The position numbers and the translations under genes were made by a program. From Candidatus Woesearchaeota archaeon (lineage in GTDB: Archaea > Nanobdellota > Nanobdellia > Woesearchaeales > GW2011-AR15): a stretch of DNA of 64,000 nt. Positions within the stretch are counted from its first letter, which is position 1, and each line of letters starts with the position of its first letter. Below, piece by piece: positions 45,545-60,022 of this stretch. A model generated the notes under the pieces. It was given only the letters and a program-made list of their open reading frames with translations, had not been told where the DNA came from and did no database searches. The stretch is taken from contig JAVZBY010000003.1 of NCBI GenBank assembly GCA_038874655.1, forward strand, positions 57,326 to 121,325. Reading direction: 5' to 3'.

Positions 45545-47212
45545 TCATAATTCATCAAATAACTTAATTGCTTTATCTTTTATTACTAATAAGAAAGGTG
45601 CCAATTTTGGGCCTTTTTCTTTGCCTAATAAAACCAAATATGCAGCTTTAAATAATTCTTGTGGCTCAATATTTACCTCATCTCTTGCAATAGTATAAAA
45701 TTCATTAAATAAAGTTTGTTCTGTCCATTTGCCATGCTTTAATCTTTGAGCAATTAACTTTAAAGCTTGTTTTTGCTTATCTGTTAATTTTTCTTTATTC
45801 TCATCTAAAAGTTTCTCTTGCAATTTGAATTTATATTGTTCATCTGCAAATTCATTTACCCATTTTCTTGCAAACTTTAGCCTATCTTTTACATAATTAA
45901 TTTCTTCTTTTGTCGCATCTTCATATATATGGCCAGATTCCTTTAATTTTTCAATAATGAGATCATCATTTTCAAATAATTGAACCATAACAGATGCATG
46001 TATCAAAGATATTTGTGGTGGACATCTTTCTGGAATTTTTCCAACATGACTTAACTCATAAATTCTTTTTTGTTTTATTGCTTCTTTTTCATCTACTTTT
46101 TCTAAACCAAAATATATTCTTTCTGCTTTATCATATCTCTCATATAAAAGTATTAAATCATTAGTTCCATATGGATCAAAATCTATAACTGCATTAGGCC
46201 TAGTTCTTATTAACAAATATCTTAACATTTTAGCAGGTGCAAAATTAATGCTCTCTGCAAAACCAATTCCTCTTCCTTTAGAAGTGGACATCTTTTTTCC
46301 ACCTACTGTAAAGAACTCATAACCAGGACCTTCATTATAGCCATTGCTTGGATATGGCGGTGGGTAATTAAAAACATCAACAGATATTCTACAAGCAGCT
46401 GTTCTTGAACCACCTTTAGTAAAATGATCTTTTCCTGCTGTTTCAACTATAACTCCTTTAGATGGCCATTTTGCTGCCCATTCAACTTTCCATGGAAATT
46501 TACCATTTCCATTATAGGGGCTAATCCACCCTTTATAGCCACAGCCTGATGCCCAAGCCACAACACCATCTTTGCATTCAAAATAAAGCAATTCTTTTTT
46601 AGAATTCCATTCTAATGCAATTGTAGTTGCTATTTTTCCACAATTTGGACATCTAACATTAAAAGGTAATTTATTTGCTGCTGCAACTTCTTCACCATAT
46701 AAATCTGCAAAAATCTTTTGAATTTTTTCTGCATTATCCAATGCAATTTTTATTGTTCTATTAAAAGTGCCTTTTTCATATTCTTGGCCTGTGCTTTCTA
46801 ATTCTGCCTCAATTCCAAAATCTGGAAACAAATTTGTGCATTGTTTAAAATAATAGTCCCCATAACTCTCATATCCCTGCATTGGACTTGGAATATATCT
46901 AAATGGAATACCCATATATTTTTCATATTCTTTTTTATCCAAATAAGAGGGAATTTTATCCATAGGATCCATATCATCTGAACTTAATACAAATCTAGCA
47001 TTTTTTCCCTTGCTTCTTAATGCTTTTGCAATAGCATCATGGATAATCCAACCTCTTCCAGAACCAATATGAATTATTCCTGAAGGTGTTTTTTCATCAT
47101 AAACAAAATAGCCATTTTTATCTACTAATTTTTTCAACTCGGGATTATTTTCAACCCTTTCAATAACTTCATCTGCAATTTGGTCTGCCCAGTGTTTTAC
47201 ATCTTCGCTCAT
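45545..47212 (-). CDS. lysS: Lysine--tRNA ligase, class I
   Basis: HWAD, PSGIIHIG, GKDH, KMSTSKG and KGPKL motifs. Confidence 0.95.
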   Translation of the reverse strand: MSEDVKHWADQIADEVIERVENNPELKKLVDKNGYFVYDEKTPSGIIHIGSGRGWIIHDAIAKALRSKGKNARFVLSSDDMDPMDKIPSYLDKKEYEKYMGIPFRYIPSPMQGYESYGDYYFKQCTNLFPDFGIEAELESTGQEYEKGTFNRTIKIALDNAEKIQKIFADLYGEEVAAANKLPFNVRCPNCGKIATTIALEWNSKKELLYFECKDGVVAWASGCGYKGWISPYNGNGKFPWKVEWAAKWPSKGVIVETAGKDHFTKGGSRTAACRISVDVFNYPPPYPSNGYNEGPGYEFFTVGGKKMSTSKGRGIGFAESINFAPAKMLRYLLIRTRPNAVIDFDPYGTNDLILLYERYDKAERIYFGLEKVDEKEAIKQKRIYELSHVGKIPERCPPQISLIHASVMVQLFENDDLIIEKLKESGHIYEDATKEEINYVKDRLKFARKWVNEFADEQYKFKLQEKLLDENKEKLTDKQKQALKLIAQRLKHGKWTEQTLFNEFYTIARDEVNIEPQELFKAAYLVLLGKEKGPKLAPFLLVIKDKAIKLFDEL

Positions 47213-47825: not shown

Positions 47826-49010
47826 TCAATTAATAACCTTTTCAATAATACTAACTGCCTCATCAACATTTTCTTTACTAAAAATTATAGGTGGTAATAA
47901 TCTCAAAATATTAGACAATGTTGGAATTACAATTAATCCATTATCCTGCAGTTTCTTTGTGTATTCTGTATTTTTTGTTTTTAATTCGATTGCTATCATC
48001 AATCCCTTTCCTCTAACTTCTCTTATTACAGATTTATTTAAATTTTTTAATTTATCCAAAAAATAATTTCCTACCTCTTCAGCATTTTTTAATAAATTAT
48101 TTTTTTCAATATAATCTAAAACAGCAATTCCTGCTGCGCTTATCAATGGATTTCCGCCAAAGGTATTTGTATGACAACCTGGATATAATTTTTCAGAAAC
48201 TTTATTATTAATTAAAACAGCACCAGCAGGCAAGCCTCCTGAAATGCCTTTTGCCAAACACATTATATCTGGTTTAATTCCAAAATGCTCAATAGCAAAT
48301 AATTTTCCTGTTCTTCCAAAACCTGTTTGAATCTCATCTACAATTAATAAAATATTTTTTTCATCGCAAATTTTCCTAACTTCTTTAAAGAAAGTATCAC
48401 TTGGCAATCTAATTCCTCCTTCTCCTTGTATTGGCTCCAATATTATTGCTGCAGTTTCCTCAGAAATAATTGATTTTAAACTTTCAATATCATCATAACT
48501 AAAATGATTTACATGTTGTAATAGAGGCAAAAATGGCTCATTATACTTAGGCATTGTTTTTGTTAAGCTTAAAGCTCCAATTGTTTTTCCATGATAGCCC
48601 ATTTTTGCAGCTAAAATTTCTTTCTTTCCAGTAAACAAACGAGCAAATTTGATTGCTGCTTCAACTGCCTCTGCTCCGGAATTACAAAAAAAAACTTTAT
48701 CTAAACCTGCTTTTTCACATAACTTCTTTGAGAAAATTGCTCTTTTAGAGTTCATATAACTCCCATGCAAGTTTGTTATTAAATCTAATTGCTCAATTAT
48801 AGCTTCTTTAACTGCCTTATTATTATGGCCTAAAACATTGACACCCATATTAGAAAAACAATCTAAATATTTTTTTCCATTATTATCATATAAATAAACA
48901 CCCTCTCCTTTTTCAATAAACAAACCTCTGTTTCCATATGTTGGTGCAACATAAGTATTATGCATATTTGCTAATTCTTCATAATCAAAATTATTTTTAT
49001 TGAAACTCAT
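47826..49010 (-). CDS. lysJ: [LysW]-aminoadipate semialdehyde transaminase (class III PLP aminotransferase)
   Basis: NSGAEA.E, EPIQGEGG, DEIQTG.GRTG and LAKG motifs; operon context. Confidence 0.88.
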   Translation of the reverse strand: MSFNKNNFDYEELANMHNTYVAPTYGNRGLFIEKGEGVYLYDNNGKKYLDCFSNMGVNVLGHNNKAVKEAIIEQLDLITNLHGSYMNSKRAIFSKKLCEKAGLDKVFFCNSGAEAVEAAIKFARLFTGKKEILAAKMGYHGKTIGALSLTKTMPKYNEPFLPLLQHVNHFSYDDIESLKSIISEETAAIILEPIQGEGGIRLPSDTFFKEVRKICDEKNILLIVDEIQTGFGRTGKLFAIEHFGIKPDIMCLAKGISGGLPAGAVLINNKVSEKLYPGCHTNTFGGNPLISAAGIAVLDYIEKNNLLKNAEEVGNYFLDKLKNLNKSVIREVRGKGLMIAIELKTKNTEYTKKLQDNGLIVIPTLSNILRLLPPIIFSKENVDEAVSIIEKVIN

Positions 49011-49094
49011 TTTCTATCACCTTTTTATTTTATATTTTTATTTTCTAATATTTTTATCTCGTTTTTCAATTCTTATTATTTATTTCTCATTTAA

Positions 49095-49919
49095 CTAATT
49101 TTTTGTGATAATTGTTCCATTTTCATTTAAAGCATTCATCAATGGACTTTCAATTCTGCCGTCTGCCAAAATAATCTTTAAATTTGGATTAATATACTCT
49201 GACTCAAACAACTTTTTTATAGCATAAATTTTTCTTTTCATTCTTCCCTCAACTTTCTGTTCCATTATTTCCAAATCACTGAAATTTAATTTTTTAATTA
49301 GTGTATTTTCATCATTTTTATCCTCTAAAAAACCTCTTGCTTCTATAAAACTTATAATTAAATCTGCATTTAATTTTTCATTCAATAATGAAACAATATC
49401 ATCATTTTCTGTATTTATTGCAAAATTATTTTCATCTAATATAGGAATGCTAATTATAGGAATATACTTATTATCAAGCAGCAAAATCAATAAATTAAGA
49501 TTAATTGATTTTGGTTTTCCTGAAAAATCTCTGACAATTTTTATTTTACCATTATCATTTATTCTAATTCCTTGATTTCTCTGCCCAACAACTAAAGAAC
49601 CATCTATCCCAGATAATCCAATAGCATTCAACCCATTTTGTAAAAATTTTTCAACAATTCTTTTATTTTTTAAACCGCTGTAAGACATTAAAATTAAATC
49701 AATAGCTTCTTCATCACTATACACACTTTCAAAGCCCTTTATTGATTTCAAGACCTTTTTTTCAACATTCAATTTTTTTGCTAACTCATCTCTCAAATAA
49801 TTTGCGCCATGAACAACAACGATTTTTTCATTATTGTTTTTTTCTAAAAAAATTTTCAAGTCCTTTGCAATCCCATTAATATTTATTTCTTTACCACCGC
49901 CTATTTTTATTATAATCAT
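49095..49919 (-). CDS. lysZ: [LysW]-aminoadipate kinase
   Basis: IKIGG, VVHGA, GLSGIDG, FSGKP and GRMKRK motifs. Confidence 0.9.
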   Translation of the reverse strand: MIIIKIGGGKEININGIAKDLKIFLEKNNNEKIVVVHGANYLRDELAKKLNVEKKVLKSIKGFESVYSDEEAIDLILMSYSGLKNKRIVEKFLQNGLNAIGLSGIDGSLVVGQRNQGIRINDNGKIKIVRDFSGKPKSINLNLLILLLDNKYIPIISIPILDENNFAINTENDDIVSLLNEKLNADLIISFIEARGFLEDKNDENTLIKKLNFSDLEIMEQKVEGRMKRKIYAIKKLFESEYINPNLKIILADGRIESPLMNALNENGTIITKN

Positions 49920-49959
49920 TTTTCCCTCCTAAAATAATAAAAAAAATTAAAAAACAAAC

Positions 49960-50655
49960 CTAAAAAACATATAATCCTAAATTTAGTTTTTTCCAATTTT
50001 CTTTATTTTCGTTTTCAAATTCTTGTGAGCAAATTATTAATCTTTCATTTTTGTTAGTTTCATTATTTTTTTTATTTTCATTAATCTCTTTTTTCATTCT
50101 TAAACAAAAATAATCCTCATCTGTTGTAAAATAATTATTGACAAAAACCTTTTCTTTATTAGCAATAATTATATTCAATGCTTTTATGTAATCAGTTCTT
50201 TTTTTTATTATAGAAATAGCTTTTTCCATTGCATTTTTCATACTTTCTTTTGAATCTTTTTTATCAAACCTCTTAATAAAATTGAATATTTTTTCTGCTC
50301 CTATTCTACCATGCTCTTTTATTTTAACTCCTCTTAATTCACCATTAAATATAAAAACATAATTTTCATCATAAAAAGGCATATTATTTTCAATTCTAAT
50401 GTCTTTATCCTCAAAAGCGCTTCTTGCATGTGCAATTAAAATTTTTGTTTTTTTATTTTTAGTAAAACTAAAATCCTCAGTCCATATTGGATTTATATTT
50501 TTGTAATAATTAAAATTATTTTTTTCATCTAAATAAGCCAACCCCCATCCATGTCCTTGATTTTCTTTGCTATTTTTACAAATAACTGCAAATTTTTCTA
50601 AATAAGGATTAATATCAAAAACTTCATTTGATTTAATATATAGCAATCTGCACAT
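49960..50655 (-). CDS. Class II glutamine amidotransferase-like Ntn hydrolase (YafJ/EgtC/Dug3-like)
   Basis: N-terminal MCRLL nucleophile; GWG, AHARSA, ENNMPF and FNG motifs; single domain. Confidence 0.88.
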   Translation of the reverse strand: MCRLLYIKSNEVFDINPYLEKFAVICKNSKENQGHGWGLAYLDEKNNFNYYKNINPIWTEDFSFTKNKKTKILIAHARSAFEDKDIRIENNMPFYDENYVFIFNGELRGVKIKEHGRIGAEKIFNFIKRFDKKDSKESMKNAMEKAISIIKKRTDYIKALNIIIANKEKVFVNNYFTTDEDYFCLRMKKEINENKKNNETNKNERLIICSQEFENENKENWKKLNLGLYVF

Positions 50656-50686
50656 TTTTTATAATTTTTATATAAAGATTAAAATA

Positions 50687-51724
50687 TTAAATTGGATGCA
50701 ATCCACTAAATTCTAATCCTAAGGTTTCATCAAACCCAAACATTAAATTCATGCATTGAACTGCTTGTCCTGCTGAACCCTTCATTAAATTATCTATTGC
50801 ACTTATGACAACTAATCTTTTTTTATCATTTTCATCTAATTCAAACCCAATATCACAATAATTTGTTCCCCACAATATTTTTGGCTCTGGATATCTATAA
50901 ATACCTTGCTTCTCTTTAACAAATCTTATAAATGGTTCATTTTGATATTCACTTCTGAAAATTTTCCAAATATCTTTTTCTTCCATTTCATTTTTCAAAT
51001 AAAGATGTGCTGTCATTAAAATTCCTCTCACAATTCCAATACTTGTTGCACTAAATCCAAAATAATTTGTTTTTAATTCTTGCATAATTTCTGCCATATG
51101 CCTATGTCCTGTTGGTTGATAACTTCTAACACAATCATTTCTCTCTGGATGATGGCTTGCTTCACTTGGCTTACTTCCACCTTGAGAGCTGCCTGCTTTT
51201 ACTTCAACAATTGTTCTTGATTCTTCAACAACATTATTTTTATAAAGAGGGTATAAACCTAAAATTGTTGCAGTAGAATTACAGCCGGCACATGCAACAT
51301 AATCTGCTTTTTTTATTTCTTCTCTATGTAATTCTGGAAGCCCATAAACAAATTTTTCAATTAACTCAGGATTTGGATGTTCCATACCATACCATTTAAC
51401 ATAGTCATCTTTATTTTTTAATCTGTAATCACTTCCTTTATCAATAATCTTTTTTGCTTTACTCATAAAATACTTCATTTTTTGACTGCTTAATCCATGT
51501 GGCAATCCTAAAAATAAAACATCAACCTCTTCCAGATTATTCATACTTGTAAATTTTAAGCTTGTTTTTTTCCTCAAATTAGGATGTATTTGATGCACAA
51601 ATTTACCAATATTACTTTCAGAGGTTATTTGCTTAACTTCAACATAAGGATGATTAAGCAATAATCTCAATACTTCGCCTCCTGTGTAGCCAGAAGCTCC
51701 TATAATTGAAGCTGTTATTTTCAT
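50687..51724 (-). CDS. lysY: [LysW]-aminoadipate-phosphate reductase (ArgC family)
   Basis: GASGYTGGE, YGLPEL, GCN.T and IDNLMKG.AGQA motifs. Confidence 0.92.
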   Translation of the reverse strand: MKITASIIGASGYTGGEVLRLLLNHPYVEVKQITSESNIGKFVHQIHPNLRKKTSLKFTSMNNLEEVDVLFLGLPHGLSSQKMKYFMSKAKKIIDKGSDYRLKNKDDYVKWYGMEHPNPELIEKFVYGLPELHREEIKKADYVACAGCNSTATILGLYPLYKNNVVEESRTIVEVKAGSSQGGSKPSEASHHPERNDCVRSYQPTGHRHMAEIMQELKTNYFGFSATSIGIVRGILMTAHLYLKNEMEEKDIWKIFRSEYQNEPFIRFVKEKQGIYRYPEPKILWGTNYCDIGFELDENDKKRLVVISAIDNLMKGSAGQAVQCMNLMFGFDETLGLEFSGLHPI

Positions 51725-52578
51725 TTTTTACCTCCTTGCTCCAAAACATAATCAACCATTAATTTTGGAATATTAACTCCTGTTGTTATAATTGAATTTC
51801 TAAACTCCATTGTATGATTTACTTCATTTACCATTAAACCATTTTTTGTCTCAAAAATATCTATTGCTAATAAACCACCTTTTTTATCTGTTATTGCATC
51901 TGCTGTTTTTTTACATAATTCATCAATCTCTTTTGTGATAGGACAATTTTCTGCTTTACCTCCTCTAGCTGTATTTGTAATCCAATGTTCAGAATTTCTA
52001 TAGATTGCTGCAATTGTTTTATTCCCTATTACAAAAGCTCTAATATCTCTCCCAGGTTTTTCAATATATTCTTGAATGTAAAAAATGGAATGATTATAGC
52101 CGCCTAATGTTGCTTTGTGTTCTATTATTGACTCTGCTTCTTCCCTTGATTTTACTTTAGCCATTAATCTACCCCATGAACCAATAACTGGTTTTAAAAC
52201 ACAAGGATATCCTAAAAAATCACATGCATTTAAAGCAGATTCTTCTGAAAAAGCCATAAAAACTTTAGGTGTTGGAATTTTATTATTTACTAAAATCTGA
52301 CTTGTAATATATTTATCACCACATCTCTCAGCAATAAAACTAGGATTAATTACTTTAACATTTTGTGCTTCAAATAATTTTGATATATATAATCCTCTGC
52401 TATAAGAAACGCTTCTTTCAAACAAAACATCAATATCATACTTTTTTTTTGATATGTCAAAAAATTCAATATTATCATCAATTATAATTAAATCAACATC
52501 TCTTTTTCTTAATTCATCTAACAAAAATTTTTCTTCTGCTCTTAATTTTGTCATCAAAAAACCTATTTTTAATTTCAT
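51721..52578 (-). CDS. lysX: Alpha-aminoadipate--LysW ligase (ATP-grasp)
   Basis: KPVIGSWGR, QEYI.KPGRDIR, WITNTARG and EVNHTMEFRNS motifs. Confidence 0.93.
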   Translation of the reverse strand: MKLKIGFLMTKLRAEEKFLLDELRKRDVDLIIIDDNIEFFDISKKKYDIDVLFERSVSYSRGLYISKLFEAQNVKVINPSFIAERCGDKYITSQILVNNKIPTPKVFMAFSEESALNACDFLGYPCVLKPVIGSWGRLMAKVKSREEAESIIEHKATLGGYNHSIFYIQEYIEKPGRDIRAFVIGNKTIAAIYRNSEHWITNTARGGKAENCPITKEIDELCKKTADAITDKKGGLLAIDIFETKNGLMVNEVNHTMEFRNSIITTGVNIPKLMVDYVLEQGGKK

Positions 52579-52613
52579 GATTTCACCATTTTTTTATCTT
52601 TGTTTTTTTATCA

Positions 52614-53648
52614 TTATTTTAAAAAATTAAGGACTTTTTCTCTTATTTTCTCAGCAACCTCTTTTGTTGTTTTATTGCCACCTAAATCATAAGTAGTATT
52701 ATTTTCCTTTATTGTTTCATAAACTGCTTTTTCAATTATTTCTGCATAATAAGTTTCATTAAGATATTCCAACATCATTTTTGCAGATAGGATTGCTGCA
52801 ATAGGATTTGCTTTATTCAAACCTGCATTTTTTGGATTACTACCATGTACTGGCTCAAATATCGCATTATTTTTTCCTATATTACCTGAATATGCAATTC
52901 CTAAGCCACCTACTAGCATAGAAGCCTCATCACTTAAGATATCACCAAATAAATTTGTTGTTATAATTATTTCAAATTGGCTTGGATTCTTTATTAATTG
53001 CATTGCACAAGCATCAACATGCATTTCATCCATTTGTATATTAAATTGATTGTATTTTGATTTATATTCATCATAAATCTCATAAGCAATTTTTCTAAAT
53101 AACCCACATGTCTCTCTCATTACATTTGCTTTATGCACTATAGTTATCTTTTTTCTATTTTGTTTTACTGCTAATTCAAAACCAAATCTTATAATTTTTT
53201 CACTTGCTTCTCTTGTAATAACTCTTTCTGTTATTGCTTTATTTCCATTATCTTCAATTCTTTCAATCCCAGAATAAAGATCTTCTGTATTTTCTCGAAC
53301 AATGACTAAATCAACATCTTGTCTAGAAATAGGATGCGGAATTGATCTACATGGTCTTACATTTGCATATAAATCAAATAATTTTCTTAATTTTATTATT
53401 GCAGAACTATAATTTTTAATATCTGGCGGTGTTGTTACTGCACCAAATAATGTTGCATTTGTATTTTTTATATTTTCAATTGTATCTTCAGGTAAATTAG
53501 TTCCTTTTTTTAAATATGTTTCATAACCAATCTCAGAAAAAACAAAATCAAATTTTAAAGGTAATGCATTTAAAACTAATAAAGCACTATCAATTACTTC
53601 TTTTCCAATTCCATCTCCAGGCATAACATTTATTTTGTAGGTTTTCAT
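52614..53648 (-). CDS. Homoisocitrate dehydrogenase (ICDH/IPMDH family)
   Basis: GDGIG.EV, RENTEDLY, HKANV, NLFGDILSD and EPVHGS motifs; lysine operon context. Confidence 0.85.
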   Translation of the reverse strand: MKTYKINVMPGDGIGKEVIDSALLVLNALPLKFDFVFSEIGYETYLKKGTNLPEDTIENIKNTNATLFGAVTTPPDIKNYSSAIIKLRKLFDLYANVRPCRSIPHPISRQDVDLVIVRENTEDLYSGIERIEDNGNKAITERVITREASEKIIRFGFELAVKQNRKKITIVHKANVMRETCGLFRKIAYEIYDEYKSKYNQFNIQMDEMHVDACAMQLIKNPSQFEIIITTNLFGDILSDEASMLVGGLGIAYSGNIGKNNAIFEPVHGSNPKNAGLNKANPIAAILSAKMMLEYLNETYYAEIIEKAVYETIKENNTTYDLGGNKTTKEVAEKIREKVLNFLK

Positions 53649-53680
53649 TTTTCTGTTTTGATATTTCTAAAATATTTCAA

Positions 53681-54193
53681 TTAATTATTTAGTTCTTCTA
53701 AATCATGCTCTTTTAAGTAATTAATAATGCCACCTGAATTTCTTATTTTTAAGATAAATTCTGGCATCTTCTTTGCTTCTATAACTATATTTTTTGTTAT
53801 GTTTTTTATTATTCCTTTTTCTAAATCAACTTCTAAAATGTCATTTTCATCTATTTTATCAGTATCACATTCCAAAATTGGCAATCCAATGTTTATAGCA
53901 TTTCTATAAAAAATTCTAGAAAACGATTTTGCTAAAACAACAACATTTTTCCCTTTTAATGCGACAGCAGCATGCTCTCTTGATGAGCCGCATCCAAAGT
54001 TATAACCAGCAACAACAAAATCATTTTCATTTGCATTTTTAAAATCAGGCCTTACTTCACAAAAAACATTTTTTGCTAATTCCTTAGGGTCAATTGTAAT
54101 ATTATATCTGGCAGGTATAATCTCATCTGTATTCATATTATCTGAAAATTTCCATACTTTTCCTTTAATTAAATTATTTTGAGTTTTATCCAT
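53681..54193 (-). CDS. Homoaconitase small subunit (LeuD/HacB family)
   Basis: NTDEIIP, NFGCGSSREHA and IFYRNAIN.G motifs. Confidence 0.88.
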   Translation of the reverse strand: MDKTQNNLIKGKVWKFSDNMNTDEIIPARYNITIDPKELAKNVFCEVRPDFKNANENDFVVAGYNFGCGSSREHAAVALKGKNVVVLAKSFSRIFYRNAINIGLPILECDTDKIDENDILEVDLEKGIIKNITKNIVIEAKKMPEFILKIRNSGGIINYLKEHDLEELNN

Positions 54194-54210
54194 TTTTTCA
54201 CCTATGTTAA

Positions 54211-55488
54211 TTAATTCAAATACTTTCTAGGATCTGTAATTTTGCCTTCTATTGCTGTTGCAGCTGCAGAAGCAGGACTTCCTAAATAAATTTCTGCTTC
54301 TGGGCTTCCCATTCTTCCTATAAAATTTCTGTTCATTGTTGTAAATGCTCTTTCTTTTGGTGCTAACAAACCACCATGTCTGCCAATACATGCACCACAT
54401 CCTGGATTTGTTATTGTGCAACCAGCATCAATGAAAATTTTTATTAAACCATTTTTCAATGCTTTTTCATATATAGTATTGCTAGCTGGTGTTATTATAG
54501 TTCTAGTAAATTTACTCACCTTTCTTCCTTTTAAAATAGAAGCTGCTATTTCTAAATCTTCATATCTCGCATTTGTACATGTTCCTATAAAAACTTCATC
54601 TATTTCTAAACCTTCAACCTCTTTTAACTTTTTTACATTATCAACATCTGGATGACAAGAAACCATCGGCTCTATTTCATTCACATTAATATCTATAATC
54701 TTCTCATAAATAGGATTCTTTGGATGAATCTCAATCAAATCTTTTTCACTTATAGTATCTTTAAATCTCTCTAATAATTTAGTTTCATTTTTTAAAAAGT
54801 CAATTGTTTTTTTATCAGAACTTATTAAACCACATTTTGCTCCAATTTCTGTACTCATATTAGAAAAAACGATTCTTTCATGCATTGGCAAATTTTTAAT
54901 AAATTCTCCAGAAAACTCAACGCTTTTATATGTTGCTCCATCCATTCCTAATAATCCAGCAATATAAATCATAACATCTTTTGCATAAACACCTTTTTTT
55001 AAATTACCTGTCATATTAATCAAAATTGTTTCTGGAACCTTAAACCATAATTTTCCTGTAATCCAAGCAACTGCTATTTCTGTTGAGCCATAACCAGATG
55101 AAAAACATCCTAATGCACCATAAGTATTAGAATGTGAATCTGCGCCAATCACAATATTTCCAGGAATAATAAATCCCTCTTCAATCATTACTTGATGGCA
55201 AACACCTTTTTTAAAAAAATTCTCTATTTTCTGCTCTTTAATAAAATCAGTAATCTTTTTTTGTGCTTCTGCTGCTAATAAATTAGGTGCTGGATATGCA
55301 TGATCAAAATGAATAACAATCTTATTTTTATCTTTAAGTGGTTTCCCGACTTCTCTAAAAGATTTTATTGCTAATGGCGTAGTATTATCATGGCTCATTA
55401 TAAAATCAACATCAGCAATAACTAAATCTCCTGCTTTTACTTCTTTATTTAATTTTCTTGAAAAAATTTCCTCTACTAATGTTCCCAT
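54211..55488 (-). CDS. Homoaconitase large subunit (LeuC/HacA family)
   Basis: DH, GVCHQ, DSH, GTCTNAR, CGAC and NRNF.GRMG motifs. Confidence 0.9.
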   Translation of the reverse strand: MGTLVEEIFSRKLNKEVKAGDLVIADVDFIMSHDNTTPLAIKSFREVGKPLKDKNKIVIHFDHAYPAPNLLAAEAQKKITDFIKEQKIENFFKKGVCHQVMIEEGFIIPGNIVIGADSHSNTYGALGCFSSGYGSTEIAVAWITGKLWFKVPETILINMTGNLKKGVYAKDVMIYIAGLLGMDGATYKSVEFSGEFIKNLPMHERIVFSNMSTEIGAKCGLISSDKKTIDFLKNETKLLERFKDTISEKDLIEIHPKNPIYEKIIDINVNEIEPMVSCHPDVDNVKKLKEVEGLEIDEVFIGTCTNARYEDLEIAASILKGRKVSKFTRTIITPASNTIYEKALKNGLIKIFIDAGCTITNPGCGACIGRHGGLLAPKERAFTTMNRNFIGRMGSPEAEIYLGSPASAAATAIEGKITDPRKYLN

Positions 55489-56888
55489 TAAAATTCACCT
55501 TTATTCTCATTAAGATAACCATTATGTTTTTTCAATACTATTTTTGTATTGGTTTGTTTTATTCCTTTTACTAATCTTAATTCTTCAATTAAGTTGTTTA
55601 ATTCTGCTGTACTATTTACTTTAACATATATAGAAATATCATGCTCTCCTGTTATTTCAAAAACACTTTTTACGTGTTTAAAATTTTTTAAAATTCTAAC
55701 AACTGAGCTAGTATAAACTTCTGATTCAACAGAAATTAAAATTAAAGCATTTATTCCTTCTGGAATTATATTTGTATTTTTTCCAATAACCTTTTCTGCA
55801 ATTTCTATAATATCTATATCATGTAATATCTTTCTTTCATCTCCTACTTTCTTTATTTCATAAACAATTTTCTCTAATTGCTCATCATTAACCTGAATAT
55901 CATATTCACTTAATTTTGATTTTACAGCTGCTTTTCCAGTGTATTTATCAACAATAATTTTTCTTTCTCTACCTATTAAACTTGGTTCAAAAGGCTCATA
56001 TGTTTTAGGATTTTTCAAAACACCATTAGTATGAGAAAATGCATTTATTCCTGTAATTGGCTTATTAGGTGCAATAAAAAAACCTGATATTTTTTCTAAA
56101 TAATTACTAGCTTCAATCAAATATTTTTCATTAAACTTATTTAATCCATAAAGAACTTTAAAAGTCATAATAACTTCTGCTAAATCAGGAATTCCTGTTC
56201 TTTCACCCATACCATTTATTGTGGTATGTATGCAATCTGCTCCTGCTTCAATTGCCATTATTGCATTTGCTAATGCTAAACCAAAATCATTATGACAATG
56301 CACATCTAAACCACATGGCAATAATTTTTCTTTTAATCTTTTTACATTTTGATAAAAAACATTTGGCAGCATTATTCCTAGTGTATCTGCATAACTTATT
56401 CTGTCTGCTCCTGCTTTTATTGCTGTATTACATGCTTCAACCAAAAAATCAAAATCAGTTCTTGTGGCATCTTCTGGTGTAAATCTTACTTTTAAACCAA
56501 GAGATTTTGCATATGAAACATTTTCTTTTATTATTTCCAAAGCTTCTCTTTCAGTTTTCTTTACTTTTGTTTCTAAATGTATTTTTGAAGTAGGATAAAA
56601 AACAACAATTCTTTTTGCTCCTGTTTTCTTTGCATTATCAATATTTTGTTTTATTGCTAATGAATGTGCAACAATCTCTGCCTTTAAATTCAATTTTACA
56701 ATTTCTGAAATTGCCTCAAATATTTTTGGTGAAACACTAGGATCACCAGCCTCAATCATATCAACTCCAATTTTATCTAAATATTTTGCAATCTCTATTT
56801 TCTCATCGACACTAAAATTTACATAGGGTGTTTGTTCTCCTTCTCTTAATGTTGTATCCAATATTTTTACATCTATTTGATTTATCAT
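55488..56888 (-). CDS. Homocitrate synthase with C-terminal Lrp/AsnC (RAM) regulatory domain
   Basis: DTTLREGEQ, HCHND and GERTG motifs; tail FEITGEHDI...TNTKIVL typical of RAM. Confidence 0.88.
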   Translation of the reverse strand: MINQIDVKILDTTLREGEQTPYVNFSVDEKIEIAKYLDKIGVDMIEAGDPSVSPKIFEAISEIVKLNLKAEIVAHSLAIKQNIDNAKKTGAKRIVVFYPTSKIHLETKVKKTEREALEIIKENVSYAKSLGLKVRFTPEDATRTDFDFLVEACNTAIKAGADRISYADTLGIMLPNVFYQNVKRLKEKLLPCGLDVHCHNDFGLALANAIMAIEAGADCIHTTINGMGERTGIPDLAEVIMTFKVLYGLNKFNEKYLIEASNYLEKISGFFIAPNKPITGINAFSHTNGVLKNPKTYEPFEPSLIGRERKIIVDKYTGKAAVKSKLSEYDIQVNDEQLEKIVYEIKKVGDERKILHDIDIIEIAEKVIGKNTNIIPEGINALILISVESEVYTSSVVRILKNFKHVKSVFEITGEHDISIYVKVNSTAELNNLIEELRLVKGIKQTNTKIVLKKHNGYLNENKGEF

Positions 56889-56933
56889 TTTTTAAAAAAA
56901 TTTTTTGAAAATTTATTGAATTACTTTAGTTAT

Positions 56934-57095
56934 TTATTGACCCCAGTCTTCTGCTTCTTGAGGAGCCAATTCTAAAACAACAGGATTTAATTTCCTAACC
57001 TCTAATTCAGAACCACAATCTTGGCAATTTAAAATTTCGCCAATTTCAACATTTTCAGCTTTAATTTCTGCACCACATTCTGGACATTCTGCCAT
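56934..57095 (-). CDS. lysW: LysW amino-group carrier protein ending in Gln (not in ORF track)
   Basis: MAECPECGAE...CQDCGSELEV...LAPQEAEDWGQ*, 53 aa; GGAGG SD upstream. Confidence 0.95.
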   Translation of the reverse strand: MAECPECGAEIKAENVEIGEILNCQDCGSELEVRKLNPVVLELAPQEAEDWGQ

Positions 57096-58207: not shown

Positions 58208-60022
58208 TTATTTTTTAAAATTTTCTTTCTTAATAAAATCTAATTTTATATGCAATTCTTTTAATTGTTTTTCATCAACCTCACTAGGACTACCTACCAT
58301 AAGTTCTTCTGCATTTTTGTTTTTTGGAAATGCAGTTATTTCTCTAATGTTTGGCTCTCCTCTTAAAATCATAACTAATCTTTCAATACCAGGAGCAAAA
58401 CCACAATGTGGTGGTGCGCCATATTTAAATGCTTTAATCATATGCCCAAATTTCTTATCTACTACTTCTTTTCCATAACCAGCTATTTCAAAAGCTTTAT
58501 ACATAATTTCAGGAACATTATTTCTAACTGCTCCTGAGCTTAATTCAACTCCATTACAAACAATATCATATTGATAAGCTAAAATATCCAAAGGATCTTT
58601 TGTTTTTAATGCTTCTAAACCTCCTTGAGGCATTGAAAAAGGATTATGACAAAAATCAATTTTTCCTTCTTCTTCATTAAATTCATACATTGGAAAATCA
58701 ACTACCCATAACCAAGCCAAAATATTTTCATCAATCAAATTTAATCTTTTTCCTAATTCTAATCTAACTTGAGATAATGACTTACATACAATTTTTTCTT
58801 TTTCTGCTGCAAAAAATATTATATCATTTTCTTCTGCTTTCATCTCATTTAATATTTTACTTGTTATTTCATCACCTAAATATTTTGTAATAGGTGATTT
58901 TATTTCTCCATCTTTTAAAGTAATATAAGCCAATCCTTTTAAACCATGACTTTTTGCTAATTCTGTTAGTTCCTCAATATCCTTTCTTGTAAAAAGATTT
59001 GCTGCTTTTTTTGCATTTATTGCTCTAACAACACCTTTGTTTTTAATTACATTAGAAAAAACCTCAAAATTTGTATTTTTTACTATTTGTGTTATGTCTT
59101 GTATTTCTAATCCAAACCTTATATCAGGTTTATCTGTTCCATATTTTAACATTACATCTTTATACTTTAATCTTGGAAATGGTTGATGTAATATCTTTTT
59201 ATTAGTGAATTTTTTTGTTAATTCTATAAATAAAGGTTCCATTAAATCAAAAAACTCATCTTGAGTTAAAAAACTAGTTTCACAATCTAATTGATAAAAT
59301 TCACCTGGGCTTCTATCTGCTCTTGCATCTTCATCTCTCATACATGGAGCAATTTGAAAATATTTATCAAAACCAGCTACCATTAATAATTGCTTATATT
59401 GCTGTGGCGCCTGTGGTAAAGCATAAAACTTTCCTGGATGTAATCTTGACGGAACTAAAAAATCCCTTGCTCCTTCTGGAGAGCTTACAGTTAATATTGG
59501 TGTTTCTATTTCTGTAAAACCATGTGAAAACATCCAATCTCTTATAAATTTAACCACATGACTTCTAAAAATAATATTTTCTTGTAATCTTTTTCTTCTT
59601 AAATCTAAAAATCTGTATTTTAATCTTATTTCTTCAGAAACATCGATTCTATCATCAATCTCAAAAGGAGGTGTATCTGCTTTATTTAATATTTCAACAT
59701 TATCAACTAAAACTTCTATTTCTCCTGTTTCTAAATTTGGATTTTCTAAACCTTCACCTCTATATCTTACTTTTCCTTTCGCATGAATCACAAACTCTCT
59801 TCTTAAAGTTTCTGCAATTTTATGACTATCTTTATCATGACTAGGATCAAAAACTAATTGTGTAATTCCATATCTATCTCTTAAATCAATGAATATCTTT
59901 CCACCATGATCTCTATAAGAATTTACCCAACCTGACAATTTGACTTCTTTTCCAATATCTGATTTTCTTAATTCTCCACAAGTATGTGTTCTTAATTTTG
60001 TATTCATAAACAACAACCTCAC
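58208..60022 (-). CDS. aspS: Aspartate--tRNA ligase, bacterial-type with GAD insert (start probably 60007)
   Basis: RTHTCGEL, RDHGG, EGARDFLVPSR, QAPQQYKQLLM and GAPPH motifs. Confidence 0.95.
   Translation of the reverse strand: MRLLFMNTKLRTHTCGELRKSDIGKEVKLSGWVNSYRDHGGKIFIDLRDRYGITQLVFDPSHDKDSHKIAETLRREFVIHAKGKVRYRGEGLENPNLETGEIEVLVDNVEILNKADTPPFEIDDRIDVSEEIRLKYRFLDLRRKRLQENIIFRSHVVKFIRDWMFSHGFTEIETPILTVSSPEGARDFLVPSRLHPGKFYALPQAPQQYKQLLMVAGFDKYFQIAPCMRDEDARADRSPGEFYQLDCETSFLTQDEFFDLMEPLFIELTKKFTNKKILHQPFPRLKYKDVMLKYGTDKPDIRFGLEIQDITQIVKNTNFEVFSNVIKNKGVVRAINAKKAANLFTRKDIEELTELAKSHGLKGLAYITLKDGEIKSPITKYLGDEITSKILNEMKAEENDIIFFAAEKEKIVCKSLSQVRLELGKRLNLIDENILAWLWVVDFPMYEFNEEEGKIDFCHNPFSMPQGGLEALKTKDPLDILAYQYDIVCNGVELSSGAVRNNVPEIMYKAFEIAGYGKEVVDKKFGHMIKAFKYGAPPHCGFAPGIERLVMILRGEPNIREITAFPKNKNAEELMVGSPSEVDEKQLKELHIKLDFIKKENFKK

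Follow-up and report, generated by a model that had tools for sequence, protein, structure and literature searches.

A class II glutamine amidotransferase-like hydrolase in a variant lysW cluster is a candidate replacement for LysK

Gene content of the lysW cluster

The window, the whole stretch of DNA that was analyzed (64,000 nucleotides from a Candidatus Woesearchaeota archaeon), carries ten open reading frames (ORFs) in one co-directional run on the minus strand, in the order lysW-HCS-hacA-hacB-HICDH-lysX-lysY-[GATase-like]-lysZ-lysJ, as determined from the ORF list and by family scans (Table 1). An earlier note on this DNA had placed a class II glutamine amidotransferase (GATase)-like gene between lysY and lysZ, and all ten ORFs were found at the claimed places with identities that agree. 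With lysW, lysX, lysY, lysZ, and lysJ together with the genes for HCS, HacAB, and HICDH, the run belongs to the LysW lysine clusters. lysX, lysY, lysZ, and lysJ are single copies in the window genome (G000; 1,263,075 bases, 17 contigs, 97.31% complete). The neighbors of the hydrolase gene are lys genes only, and no egt genes were found near it.

Table 1. Genes of the lysW cluster, positions 47826 to 57095 of the window
Gene or product	Position	Strand	Family match
lysW, amino-group carrier protein, 53 aa	56934..57095	-	TIGR01206 85 bits (cut-off 53), PF21344 69 bits
Homocitrate synthase (HCS) with C-terminal AsnC/RAM-type ligand-binding domain (residues about 383-453)	55488..56888	-	HMGL-like 260 bits, HCS_D2 73 bits, AsnC_trans_reg 44.5 bits, TIGR02146 400 bits
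hacA, homoaconitase large subunit	54211..55488	-	TIGR01343 516 bits, above cut-off
hacB, homoaconitase small subunit	53681..54193	-	TIGR02087 182 bits, above cut-off
Homoisocitrate dehydrogenase (HICDH)	52614..53648	-	PF00180 347 bits; top NCBIfam AksF2/LEU3_arch, about 400 bits
lysX, ATP-grasp ligase loading 2-aminoadipate onto LysW	51721..52578	-	TIGR02144 344 bits (cut-off 276); LysX_preATP_grasp domain
lysY, [LysW]-aminoadipyl-phosphate reductase, ArgC family	50687..51724	-	TIGR01850 401 bits
Class II GATase-like Ntn hydrolase (P0001), 231 aa, Cys2 nucleophile	49960..50655	-	PF13230 GATase_4 33.2 bits (cut-off 23)
lysZ, [LysW]-aminoadipate kinase, subfamily accompanying the hydrolase gene	49095..49919	-	NF010659 210 bits, AA_kinase 83 bits
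lysJ, [LysW]-aminoadipate-semialdehyde aminotransferase	47826..49010	-	TIGR00707 448 bits, above cut-off; LysJ models 351-381 bits

The LysW pathway is the textbook case of amino acid synthesis on a carrier protein. LysK, a peptidase of the M20 (ArgE/DapE) family (TIGR01902), is the [LysW]-lysine/ornithine hydrolase and, to our knowledge, is regarded as the universal last enzyme of the pathway. The absence of an M20 peptidase gene from the operon, remarked on in the earlier note, extended to the whole genome in the search that the note had proposed: there were no matches to PF01546 (the same search was positive in 14/14 control genomes), none to TIGR01902 at E ≤ 1, and none by tblastn at E ≤ 1e-3 with the LysK of a relative as query. 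dapA was also not found in this genome, and a single lysA-like match fell below the cut-off. The LysW pathway appears to be the sole lysine route of the organism, missing merely the release step. Given the complete operon from lysW to lysJ, the lack of M20/LysK and dapA, and the sub-cut-off lysA-like match, the hydrolase is by elimination the candidate substitute for LysK. In two cultured Ignavibacteria with the cluster (G041 and G042), lysA, dapA, and LysK were likewise all not found.

Sequence and fold of the hydrolase

The first start codon that follows a stop gives the hydrolase ORF the N-terminal sequence Met-Cys-Arg-Leu (MCRL), and Cys was the second codon in 88/88 homologous ORFs, with the reading frame intact in 88/88 loci. 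C2, H76-A-R78-S-A, and N104-G105 were invariant in the family alignment, and HMMER alignments paired R78 and N104-G105 with the corresponding Arg and Asn-Gly motifs in 3MDN and EgtC; in class II GATases, as known from GlmS and PurF, Asn-Gly provides the oxyanion hole and Arg binds the glutamyl α-carboxylate. Among 32 diverse hydrolase sequences 39 columns were invariant, and archaeal sequences were 50 to 60% identical to those from at least seven bacterial phyla. The family returned 3,111 matches at E ≤ 0.001, typically of 210 to 214 amino acids, and one clean natural hydrolase-LysZ fusion was found (P0122; 481 amino acids). For the AF2 model of the hydrolase (pLDDT, 91.8; pTM, 0.90), the top Foldseek match was EgtC (E = 6e-11; TM, 0.74 to 0.76), and the Foldseek probability was 1.00 to EgtC, 1te5, 3mdn, GlmS, GFAT, and PurF. 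With Cys2, the four-layer αββα Ntn fold, the Asn-Gly and Arg motifs, and a score above the Pfam threshold, the protein meets the criteria for the class II GATase/Ntn superfamily.

EgtC, the ergothioneine-biosynthetic Ntn amidohydrolase (PDB 4zfj, 4zfk, and 4zfl), cleaves a γ-glutamyl amide and frees the amine part. It is the best structural match and has in common with the LysW hydrolase the single-domain class II GATase fold, the Cys2 nucleophile, and γ-glutamyl amide cleavage with release of an amine, which for the LysW hydrolase is predicted; however, the two are only 13 to 14% identical, and the LysW hydrolase would take its γ-glutamyl group from the last residue of a 53-amino-acid protein rather than from a free γ-glutamyl compound. 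Assignment as an EgtC equivalog (TIGR03442) was rejected: the score, 42.1 bits, fell short of the 218.65 cut-off, and there was no egt context. The YafJ-type stand-alone GATase-like proteins of unknown function (1te5 and 3mdn; GATase_4) share the Pfam family and the fold, and 3mdn was the best PDB sequence match (E = 0.0044). Unlike these, the LysW hydrolases form a tight separate group that keeps its high identity across domains and has invariant motifs of its own; copies in relatives of the window genome (L009 to L012; 24 to 37% identity), which were called YafJ-type by weak similarity only and without a family-model scan, have no lys genes within about 1.5 kb. The glutaminase domains of GlmS/GFAT and PurF resemble the LysW hydrolase in fold and in the Cys1, Arg, and Asn-Gly catalytic framework, whereas the LysW hydrolase lacks a synthase domain and an ammonia channel, and its predicted substrate is a protein-bound γ-amide. 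Membership in the LysK family was also rejected, since P0001 has no M20 match and could be a functional analogue at most.

Recurrence of the variant and mutual exclusivity with LysK

The earlier note had named a lack of recurrence of the gene in other lysW operons as one ground for refuting its reading. In public genomes the hydrolase gene was indeed observed in the same slot, with lysZ directly downstream in 78/80 loci, lysY upstream in 74/80, and lysW within reach in 60/80; three of the 80 loci (L018, L043, and L057) were off the canonical context. Around 37 loci of at least 20 kb, lysX, lysY, the hydrolase gene, lysZ, and lysJ (37 each) and HCS (35) were conserved, and no further conserved gene was found, the flanks being unrelated (rotamases, MoxR, and nuo). 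The extra gene is integral to a variant of the lysW cluster. In evenly drawn samples of lysW clusters with resolved context, the hydrolase type accounted for 11 of 12 clusters in Bacteroidota and 12 of 13 in Nanoarchaeota, with no LysK type in either, and for 6 clusters in Acidobacteriota next to 11 of the LysK type, the two never sharing a locus. Cultured hosts include Melioribacter, Rosettibacter, and Caldithrix. In G044 and G045 the cluster lacks HCS and the genomes also carry lysA and dapA; the product released there may be something other than lysine. A quick tree placed the LysZ proteins that accompany the hydrolase gene in a distinct subfamily, which the earlier note had not anticipated.

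The anticorrelation between lysK and the hydrolase gene that the note had suggested looking for was observed in every comparison. LysK above the TIGR01902 cut-off was present in 0/30 hydrolase-bearing genomes (9 of which had no match at all at E ≤ 0.001), and the hydrolase gene was present in 0/4 relatives with above-cut-off LysK (G003, G008, G009, and G013) and in 0/80 metagenomic LysK loci. G003, a congener of the window organism, has a lysY-lysZ-lysJ-lysK arrangement instead. Many hydrolase-bearing genomes do hold sub-cut-off M20 proteins (e.g., 117 bits in G406, 109 bits in G015, and 93 bits in G146), which could moonlight in the role of LysK and to that extent count against replacement. 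Two genomes with lysW (G012 and G018, both fragmented assemblies) had neither LysK nor the hydrolase detected above threshold.

The window LysW ends in ...EDWGQ, with CAA as the last codon before TAA, and does not meet the criterion of the LysW pathway that the carrier end in Glu. According to a report on Thermococcus LysW (PMC12998189), the attachment point there is Glu E53. Gln-ended proteins made up 24 of 78 distinct LysW sequences from hydrolase clusters versus 0 of 28 from LysK clusters (Fisher P = 3.5e-4; the test is uncorrected for phylogeny and counts related sequences as independent), and within Acidobacteriota alone the counts were 4/6 and 0/11, respectively. The remaining 54 of the 78 end in Glu, and the hydrolase gene is kept in all. 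This confinement of Gln-terminated LysW to hydrolase clusters was not foreseen in the earlier note.

Proposed function of the hydrolase

A model of the LysW-hydrolase complex, another test that the note had named, passed its controls, with a score of 0.61 (0.61, 0.58, and 0.63 in three runs) versus 0.12 for the best of 3 controls; in calibration, the mark was reached by 58/80 solved complexes and 2/110 mismatched pairs. The score expresses model confidence only, and the alignments were made for this analysis. The runs had at least 92% of contacts in common, with a partner pLDDT of at least 80. The modeled C-terminal tail of LysW enters the Cys2 active site, and the interface is formed by LysW residues 21 and 44 to 53 and hydrolase residues 2, 78 to 81, 103 to 113, 118 to 123, 149, and 153 to 155. 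Invariant or nearly invariant residues made up 18/25 of the interface versus 49/206 elsewhere. We know of no solved complex of LysW with a class II GATase, so recall of a known complex by the model is unlikely.

The proposal of the earlier note, that the enzyme is a nonorthologous LysK replacement, has the support of every computational test that it named, but this support comes solely from inference on comparative and structural grounds. We consider it probable, in the absence of biochemical data, that the hydrolase replaces LysK and also matures Gln-ended LysW. A stand-alone class II GATase-type Ntn hydrolase would then perform the last step of the pathway instead of the M20 metallopeptidase. 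Removal of Met1 would expose Cys2 as the N-terminal nucleophile, and the active-site groove would bind the acidic EDWG(E/Q) tail of LysW. Attack of Cys2 on the γ-carbonyl of the last LysW residue would free lysine (or possibly ornithine in some hosts) and leave a LysW-γ-glutamyl thioester, hydrolysis of which by water would return LysW with a free γ-carboxylate, available to LysX. The same chemistry may convert the gene-encoded C-terminal Gln to Glu. Such a deamidation step would be required for the Gln-ended window LysW and would explain how LysW in hydrolase clusters is able to end in Gln, a pattern that fits an enzyme hydrolyzing any γ-amide on the last residue of the carrier. Hydrolysis of LysW-γ-Lys, the covalent intermediate, and deamidation are all inferred, without enzymatic, genetic, or expression data, alongside observed gene content, slot conservation, LysK exclusivity, fold, catalytic motifs, and Gln/Glu pattern.

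The predicted reaction is that of LysK, cleavage of the isopeptide bond between the C-terminal γ-carboxyl of LysW and the α-amino group of lysine, and the place in the pathway, membership in the lysW cluster, and recognition of the EDWG tail, for the hydrolase as modeled, are also alike. The two differ in mechanism (metal-dependent M20 versus an N-terminal-nucleophile Cys with an inferred covalent thioester), in their unrelated folds and lack of sequence similarity, in gene position (lysK follows lysJ, whereas the hydrolase gene lies between lysY and lysZ), and in the exclusively Glu-terminated LysW of LysK clusters. No description of a LysK-replacing hydrolase variant was found in the literature searched.

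An enzyme that merely cares for the carrier, by deamidating the Gln of pro-LysW or by stripping wrong or dead-end acyl groups (proofreading or repair) while an unidentified hydrolase frees lysine, seems improbable, though it cannot be set aside. It would account for the confinement of Gln-ended LysW to clusters with the gene, and it could leave lysine release to one of the sub-cut-off M20 proteins; moreover, G009 has a LysK-type cluster whose lysY-lysZ slot is filled by an unrelated Ntn hydrolase (PF03417), so an accessory, non-LysK amidase role is conceivable there and may occur in lysW clusters. However, the gene is retained where LysW already ends in Glu, the window genome and 8 other hydrolase-bearing genomes have no M20/LysK-like match at E ≤ 0.001, the long loci offer no other conserved gene, and the LysK exclusivity (0/30, 0/4, and 0/80) is expected under replacement and not under an add-on role. 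We give very little credence to a true glutaminase or amidotransferase subunit that converts free glutamine to glutamate or ammonia, e.g., as amino donor for LysJ or a 2-oxoadipate aminotransferase. The Pfam clan is that of class II glutamine amidotransferases and free glutamine is also a ligand of EgtC (per the title of PDB 4zfk), but the protein is a single domain of 210 to 231 amino acids without a conserved synthase or acceptor partner nearby, the complex model has the LysW tail rather than a free amino acid at Cys2, and both the LysK exclusivity and the Gln-ended LysW would be left unexplained. A hitchhiking or decaying gene without a role in the pathway, for which the only support is the absence of experimental data, is scarcely credible and appears already disfavored by conservation of the sequence across domains and phyla, the invariant columns, the intact frames, and the fixed position.

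Replacement of LysK by the hydrolase is directly testable, since the cultured hosts Melioribacter, Rosettibacter, and Caldithrix carry the cluster. On a wider reading, for and against which we are evenly divided, a second type of carrier-protein pathway would be widespread in DPANN archaea and at least seven bacterial phyla; its carrier would be made with a Gln or Glu end, and one Cys-Ntn hydrolase would deamidate the Gln form and free the amino acid in each cycle via a carrier-enzyme thioester. The hydrolase and a coadapted LysZ would form a two-gene module that moved between bacteria and archaea and displaced lysK. If the hydrolase does perform the release step, a large family annotated merely as class II glutamine amidotransferase would gain a function, as a protein-directed γ-glutamyl hydrolase with possible use in engineered pathways, where it could act on carrier-bound intermediates; the case would be a clear nonorthologous displacement with a changed catalytic mechanism, and the gene for the carrier protein would specify an inactive form capped by an amide. 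The assignment would also close a gap in metabolic reconstruction for Ignavibacteria, other Bacteroidota, Calditrichota, Acidobacteriota, deltaproteobacterial groups, and Woesearchaeota-like DPANN archaea, lineages that without it would count as lysine auxotrophs or appear to lack part of the pathway.

Lysine operon and host genome

A co-directional run of ten minus-strand ORFs, separated by short gaps or overlapping, occupies positions 47826 to 57095; the ORFs were identified by Pfam and NCBIfam family scans. ORF calls and family scans bear out the gene order claimed in the earlier note, in which an ORF resembling class II glutamine amidotransferases (GATases; P0001, here called the hydrolase) lies between lysY and lysZ.

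Lysine operon of the window and the tRNA synthetase genes at its flanks
Feature	Position	Strand	Basis
Class I lysyl-tRNA synthetase	45545-47212	-	PF01921, 300 bits
lysJ	47826-49010	-	Pfam/NCBIfam
lysZ	49095-49919	-	Pfam/NCBIfam
Class II glutamine-amidotransferase-like protein (hydrolase)	49960-50655	-	Pfam GATase_4
lysY	50687-51724	-	Pfam/NCBIfam
lysX	51721-52578	-	Pfam/NCBIfam
Homoisocitrate dehydrogenase	52614-53648	-	Pfam/NCBIfam
Homoaconitase small subunit	53681-54193	-	Pfam/NCBIfam
Homoaconitase large subunit	54211-55488	-	Pfam/NCBIfam
Homocitrate synthase with C-terminal RAM-type domain	55488-56888	-	Pfam/NCBIfam
lysW	56934-57095	-	Pfam/NCBIfam
Aspartyl-tRNA synthetase with GAD domain	58208-60022	-	

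The lysyl-tRNA synthetase gene, directly downstream of the neighbor of lysJ, flanks the operon, so that genes for lysine synthesis and lysine charging are adjacent; the aspartyl-tRNA synthetase gene lies upstream of lysW. Residues ~376 to 455 of homocitrate synthase match an AsnC/RAM ligand-binding domain (44.5 bits), and this C-terminal domain, which also matches the regulator LysM (NF040947, 59.6 bits), may have been fused to the enzyme as a lysine sensor for feedback.

The host genome (1.26 Mb; G+C content, ~25%) is 97.3% complete. Labels on the nearest homologues suggest a DPANN archaeon resembling Woesearchaeota/Nanoarchaeota. The absence of an M20 peptidase, asserted in the earlier note for the operon, held for the whole genome: no match to the M20 family (PF01546) was found, with the same search positive in 14/14 control genomes, nor was any match to the model of LysK (TIGR01902), the M20 peptidase that usually releases lysine from the carrier protein LysW, even at an E value of ≤1, and tblastn with the LysK of a relative found nothing. 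Single copies of lysX, lysY, lysZ, lysJ, and the hydrolase gene are present. Since dapA was not found in this genome and its sole lysA-like match was far under the cutoff (75 bits versus 298), the 2-aminoadipate/LysW pathway looks like the only route to lysine in the host, and this route looks to be without exactly one known step. The genome also contains argH, the match to which (327 bits; G000:C2:169518-170684) was reported with two internal TAA stops, as was the lysA-like match (G000:C1:84053-85102) with one; the stops may point to split or decayed genes or may merely be an effect of match boundaries.

Recurrence of the hydrolase gene and its exclusivity with LysK

The hydrolase family is tight (3111 matches at E ≤ 0.001, mostly 210 to 214 aa), and identity to sequences labeled Ignavibacteria, Bacteroidetes, Calditrichaeota, Desulfobacterales, SAR324, and others is 50 to 60%. 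In 80 hydrolase loci, obtained by scanning a single genome for each species and probed for neighbors by tblastn with the proteins of the window, the gene recurred in lysW operons, with lysZ directly downstream in 78/80, lysY just upstream in 74/80, and lysW within reach in 60/80 loci; L018, L043, and L057 depart from this context. The typical bacterial unit is lysW-HCS-lysX-lysY-[hydrolase]-lysZ-lysJ (HCS, homocitrate synthase). The genes common to the 37 loci of at least 20 kb were only HCS (35/37) and the other genes of the unit (37/37); their flanks were unrelated (rotamases, MoxR ATPase, nuo genes), and no second conserved candidate hydrolase was found around the operon in these loci. Strong orthologues (E ≤ 2e-41) were present in 7/40 relatives of the window's genome, in the same slot in all 7.

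Some clusters contain additional genes. Between lysY and the hydrolase gene, genome G007 carries a D-2-hydroxyacid dehydrogenase gene (L110:8267-9292, plus strand; PF02826, 173 bits) and genome G015 an unidentified 295-aa ORF (L109:6216-7103, minus strand). Two or three lysX paralogues occur in several archaeal hydrolase clusters (L081 and L109 in G015, L112 in G014, L114 in G039, L212, and L213), and G015 has a second lysW, likewise Gln-ended, which suggests separate loading of lysine and ornithine onto carriers served by one hydrolase. HCS is missing from hydrolase clusters of Acidobacteriota (L032), a Myxococcota-labeled host (L061), Binatia (L082), and Thermodesulfobacteriota (L089), which have the order lysW-lysX-lysY-hydrolase-lysZ-lysJ. 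Both lysA and dapA are present as well in at least two of their hosts (G044 and G045), where the carrier pathway may yield ornithine or a different amino acid instead of lysine; the cultured Ignavibacteria G041 and G042, by contrast, are without lysA, dapA, and LysK.

The anticorrelation of lysK with the GATase-like gene, which the earlier note proposed as a check, was found in both directions among the sampled genomes and loci. LysK over the TIGR01902 cutoff was present in 0/30 hydrolase-bearing genomes (8 archaeal, 5 bacterial, and 17 further), 9 of which had no TIGR01902 match whatsoever at E ≤ 0.001 and many of which hold M20 proteins below the LysK cutoff. The hydrolase gene was present in none of the four relatives with LysK over the cutoff (G003, G008, G009, and G013) and in 0/80 metagenomic loci retrieved with a LysK alignment; in G003, of the window's genus, the order is lysY-lysZ-lysJ-lysK. 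Evenly drawn samples gave lysW in 12/251 genomes of Bacteroidota (11 clusters with the hydrolase gene and 1 cut by a contig end) and, over the cutoff, in 12/401 genomes of Nanoarchaeota, plus 1 just under it (12/13 clusters with the hydrolase gene and 1 on a contig that was too short). In Acidobacteriota, lysW was found in 23/251 genomes, with 6 clusters of the hydrolase type, 11 of the LysK type, and the rest cut, and the two types never shared a locus. Neither hydrolase nor LysK was detected in G012 and G018, in which lysW is present. A divergent hydrolase copy of Acidobacteriota (L236:9168-9923, minus strand; 27% identity), which starts MCRF, has an insertion, and is masked over one stretch, is found right after lysJ, the usual position of lysK, and not between lysY and lysZ.

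An accessory role, in which the hydrolase takes care of the carrier, remains conceivable in view of the LysK-type cluster of G009, in which the slot between lysY and lysZ is filled by an unrelated Ntn hydrolase of 350 aa from another family (L104:12361-13413, minus strand; PF03417, acyl-CoA:6-APA acyltransferase/C45, 72 bits; PF02275, 27 bits). The LysK of G009 is at a contig end, ~8.5 kb past lysJ.

Fold of the hydrolase and its modeled complex with LysW

The 231-residue hydrolase begins Met-Cys-Arg-Leu and matches Pfam GATase_4 (33 bits; cutoff, 23). It reached no NCBIfam model; no model specific to it was found in Pfam or NCBIfam, and in the ESM Atlas it is called merely "class II glutamine amidotransferase." Cys is the second codon in 88/88 homologous ORFs. 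When 32 diverse members were aligned, 39 columns proved invariant, including C2-R3-L4, E31/Q33-G-H-G, H76-A-R-S-A80, E89/N91-M-P-F, F103-N-G-E-L107, G116, G119, E121-K122, and N161. In alignments with 3mdn and EgtC, R78 falls on their Arg motif and N104-G105 on their Asn-Gly motif. In GlmS and PurF, this Arg binds the glutamyl alpha-carboxylate, and Asn-Gly forms the oxyanion hole. A sequence search of the PDB gave weak matches only (3mdn, E = 0.0044; EgtC, E = 0.09 to 0.16). The AlphaFold model was confident (pLDDT, 91.8; pTM, 0.90), and the PDB folds closest to it were EgtC chains (E = 6e-11 to 3e-10; TM, 0.71 to 0.77), with 1te5 and 3mdn, both stand-alone proteins, next and glutaminase domains (GFAT/GlmS and PurF) after them. 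Its fold and motifs make the hydrolase a member of the class II GATase/Ntn superfamily; it is neither EgtC nor LysK. The reading as a free-glutamine amidotransferase was rejected on the absence of a partner domain and on the position of the LysW tail in the complex model, and membership in EgtC was rejected on the NCBIfam EgtC score (42 bits; cutoff, 219) and on gene context. The bond that EgtC cleaves is a gamma-glutamyl amide, as is the lysine-LysW linkage; the hydrolase would use the chemistry of EgtC and would act on the same bond and the same carrier as LysK.

Hydrolase residues 2 to 231 and LysW, each with its own alignment, were modeled as a complex, as the earlier note had proposed. 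The LysW tail was placed at the nucleophile with scores of 0.61, 0.58, and 0.63, versus 0.12 for the best of three controls; these values express model confidence and are no measurement. In calibration, the mark was reached by 58/80 solved complexes and 2/110 mismatched pairs. At least 92% of contacts agreed between runs, with a partner pLDDT of at least 80. The confident interface comprises residue 21 and C-terminal residues 44 to 53 (APQEAEDWGQ) of LysW and residues 2, 78 to 81, 103 to 113, 118 to 120, 122 to 123, 149, and 153 to 155 of the hydrolase, covering the nucleophile, the Arg and oxyanion loops, and a conserved GRIGAEK segment. Invariant or near-invariant residues made up 18/25 interface positions versus 49/206 others (Fisher P = 3e-6). 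To our knowledge, no solved structure shows LysW bound to an enzyme with the class II GATase fold.

Gln-ended carriers and an inferred module with LysZ

Characterized LysW ends in Glu, the gamma-carboxyl of which carries the substrate (E53 in Thermococcus, according to the accessible part of PMC12998189). The LysW of the window ends in EDWGQ. From enzymology we infer that an ATP-grasp ligase is unable to activate an amide, so that a Gln end needs hydrolysis first. Gln-ended LysW was found in 24/78 cases in hydrolase clusters, from Nanoarchaeota, Ignavibacteria and other Bacteroidota, Calditrichia, and Acidobacteriota, versus 0/28 in LysK clusters (Fisher P = 3.5e-4); in the Acidobacteriota sample alone, the counts were 4/6 versus 0/11 (P = 0.006). 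Neither P value is corrected for relatedness. All collected loci were counted, with the exclusion of truncated ORFs, ORFs with masked X, duplicates, and the odd tails of L234 and L237; eight LysW in loci of unresolved type (two Gln and six Glu) were kept apart. If a glutaminase-type enzyme accepts the LysW tail, the reaction with which it liberates lysine would also turn Gln into Glu, and we propose that, given this conversion, a one-base change from Glu to Gln would be harmless only where the hydrolase is present. LysK, which is carboxypeptidase-like with an amino acid leaving group, is by inference not expected to deamidate a Gln-ended LysW.

A quick IQ-TREE phylogeny of 78 LysZ sequences (35 bacterial rows drawn at random, identical rows dropped, support by SH-aLRT only) has its deepest split supported at 99. 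One side holds 48 hydrolase-cluster rows, archaeal and bacterial intermixed, with a single LysK-type row as sister; the other holds 28 LysK-cluster rows and one hydrolase-cluster row, and the LysZ of LysK-type relatives in the window's own family falls on this LysK side. Given the split and the intermixing, the hydrolase and its LysZ behave as a module moved between domains. A clean, natural in-frame fusion of the hydrolase (~1 to 213) to LysZ (~214 to 481) occurs in P0122 (481 aa, on a 3.2-Mb contig). The fusion search gave five longer matches, of which P0123, P0124, and P0126 were not counted as fusions because of garbled stretches resembling frameshifted gene calls, and P0125 was left out of inspection.

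A full-text search, which did not cover subscription journals and supplements, found no paper linking LysW with a glutamine-amidotransferase-like or Ntn hydrolase, and within that scope the earlier note's statement that no description was known stands. The accessible part of the Caldithrix abyssi genome paper (PMC5317091) describes a LysWXZYJ+Hcs locus of eight genes and names neither LysK nor an extra gene; the parts available of PMC12998189, PMC3249071, and the GapMind 2026 preprint (bioRxiv 10.1101/2024.10.14.618325) make no mention of such an enzyme.

Replacement of LysK by the hydrolase, as first put forward in the earlier note, is supported by four independent lines: elimination, gene context and exclusivity, fold and complex model, and Gln-ended carriers. 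We consider it probable that the hydrolase replaces LysK in the LysW pathway, its enzymatic activity being inferred without assay data. What we rate as new is that the LysW pathway would here use another enzyme for release, an activity that is inferred, together with an amide-capped carrier.
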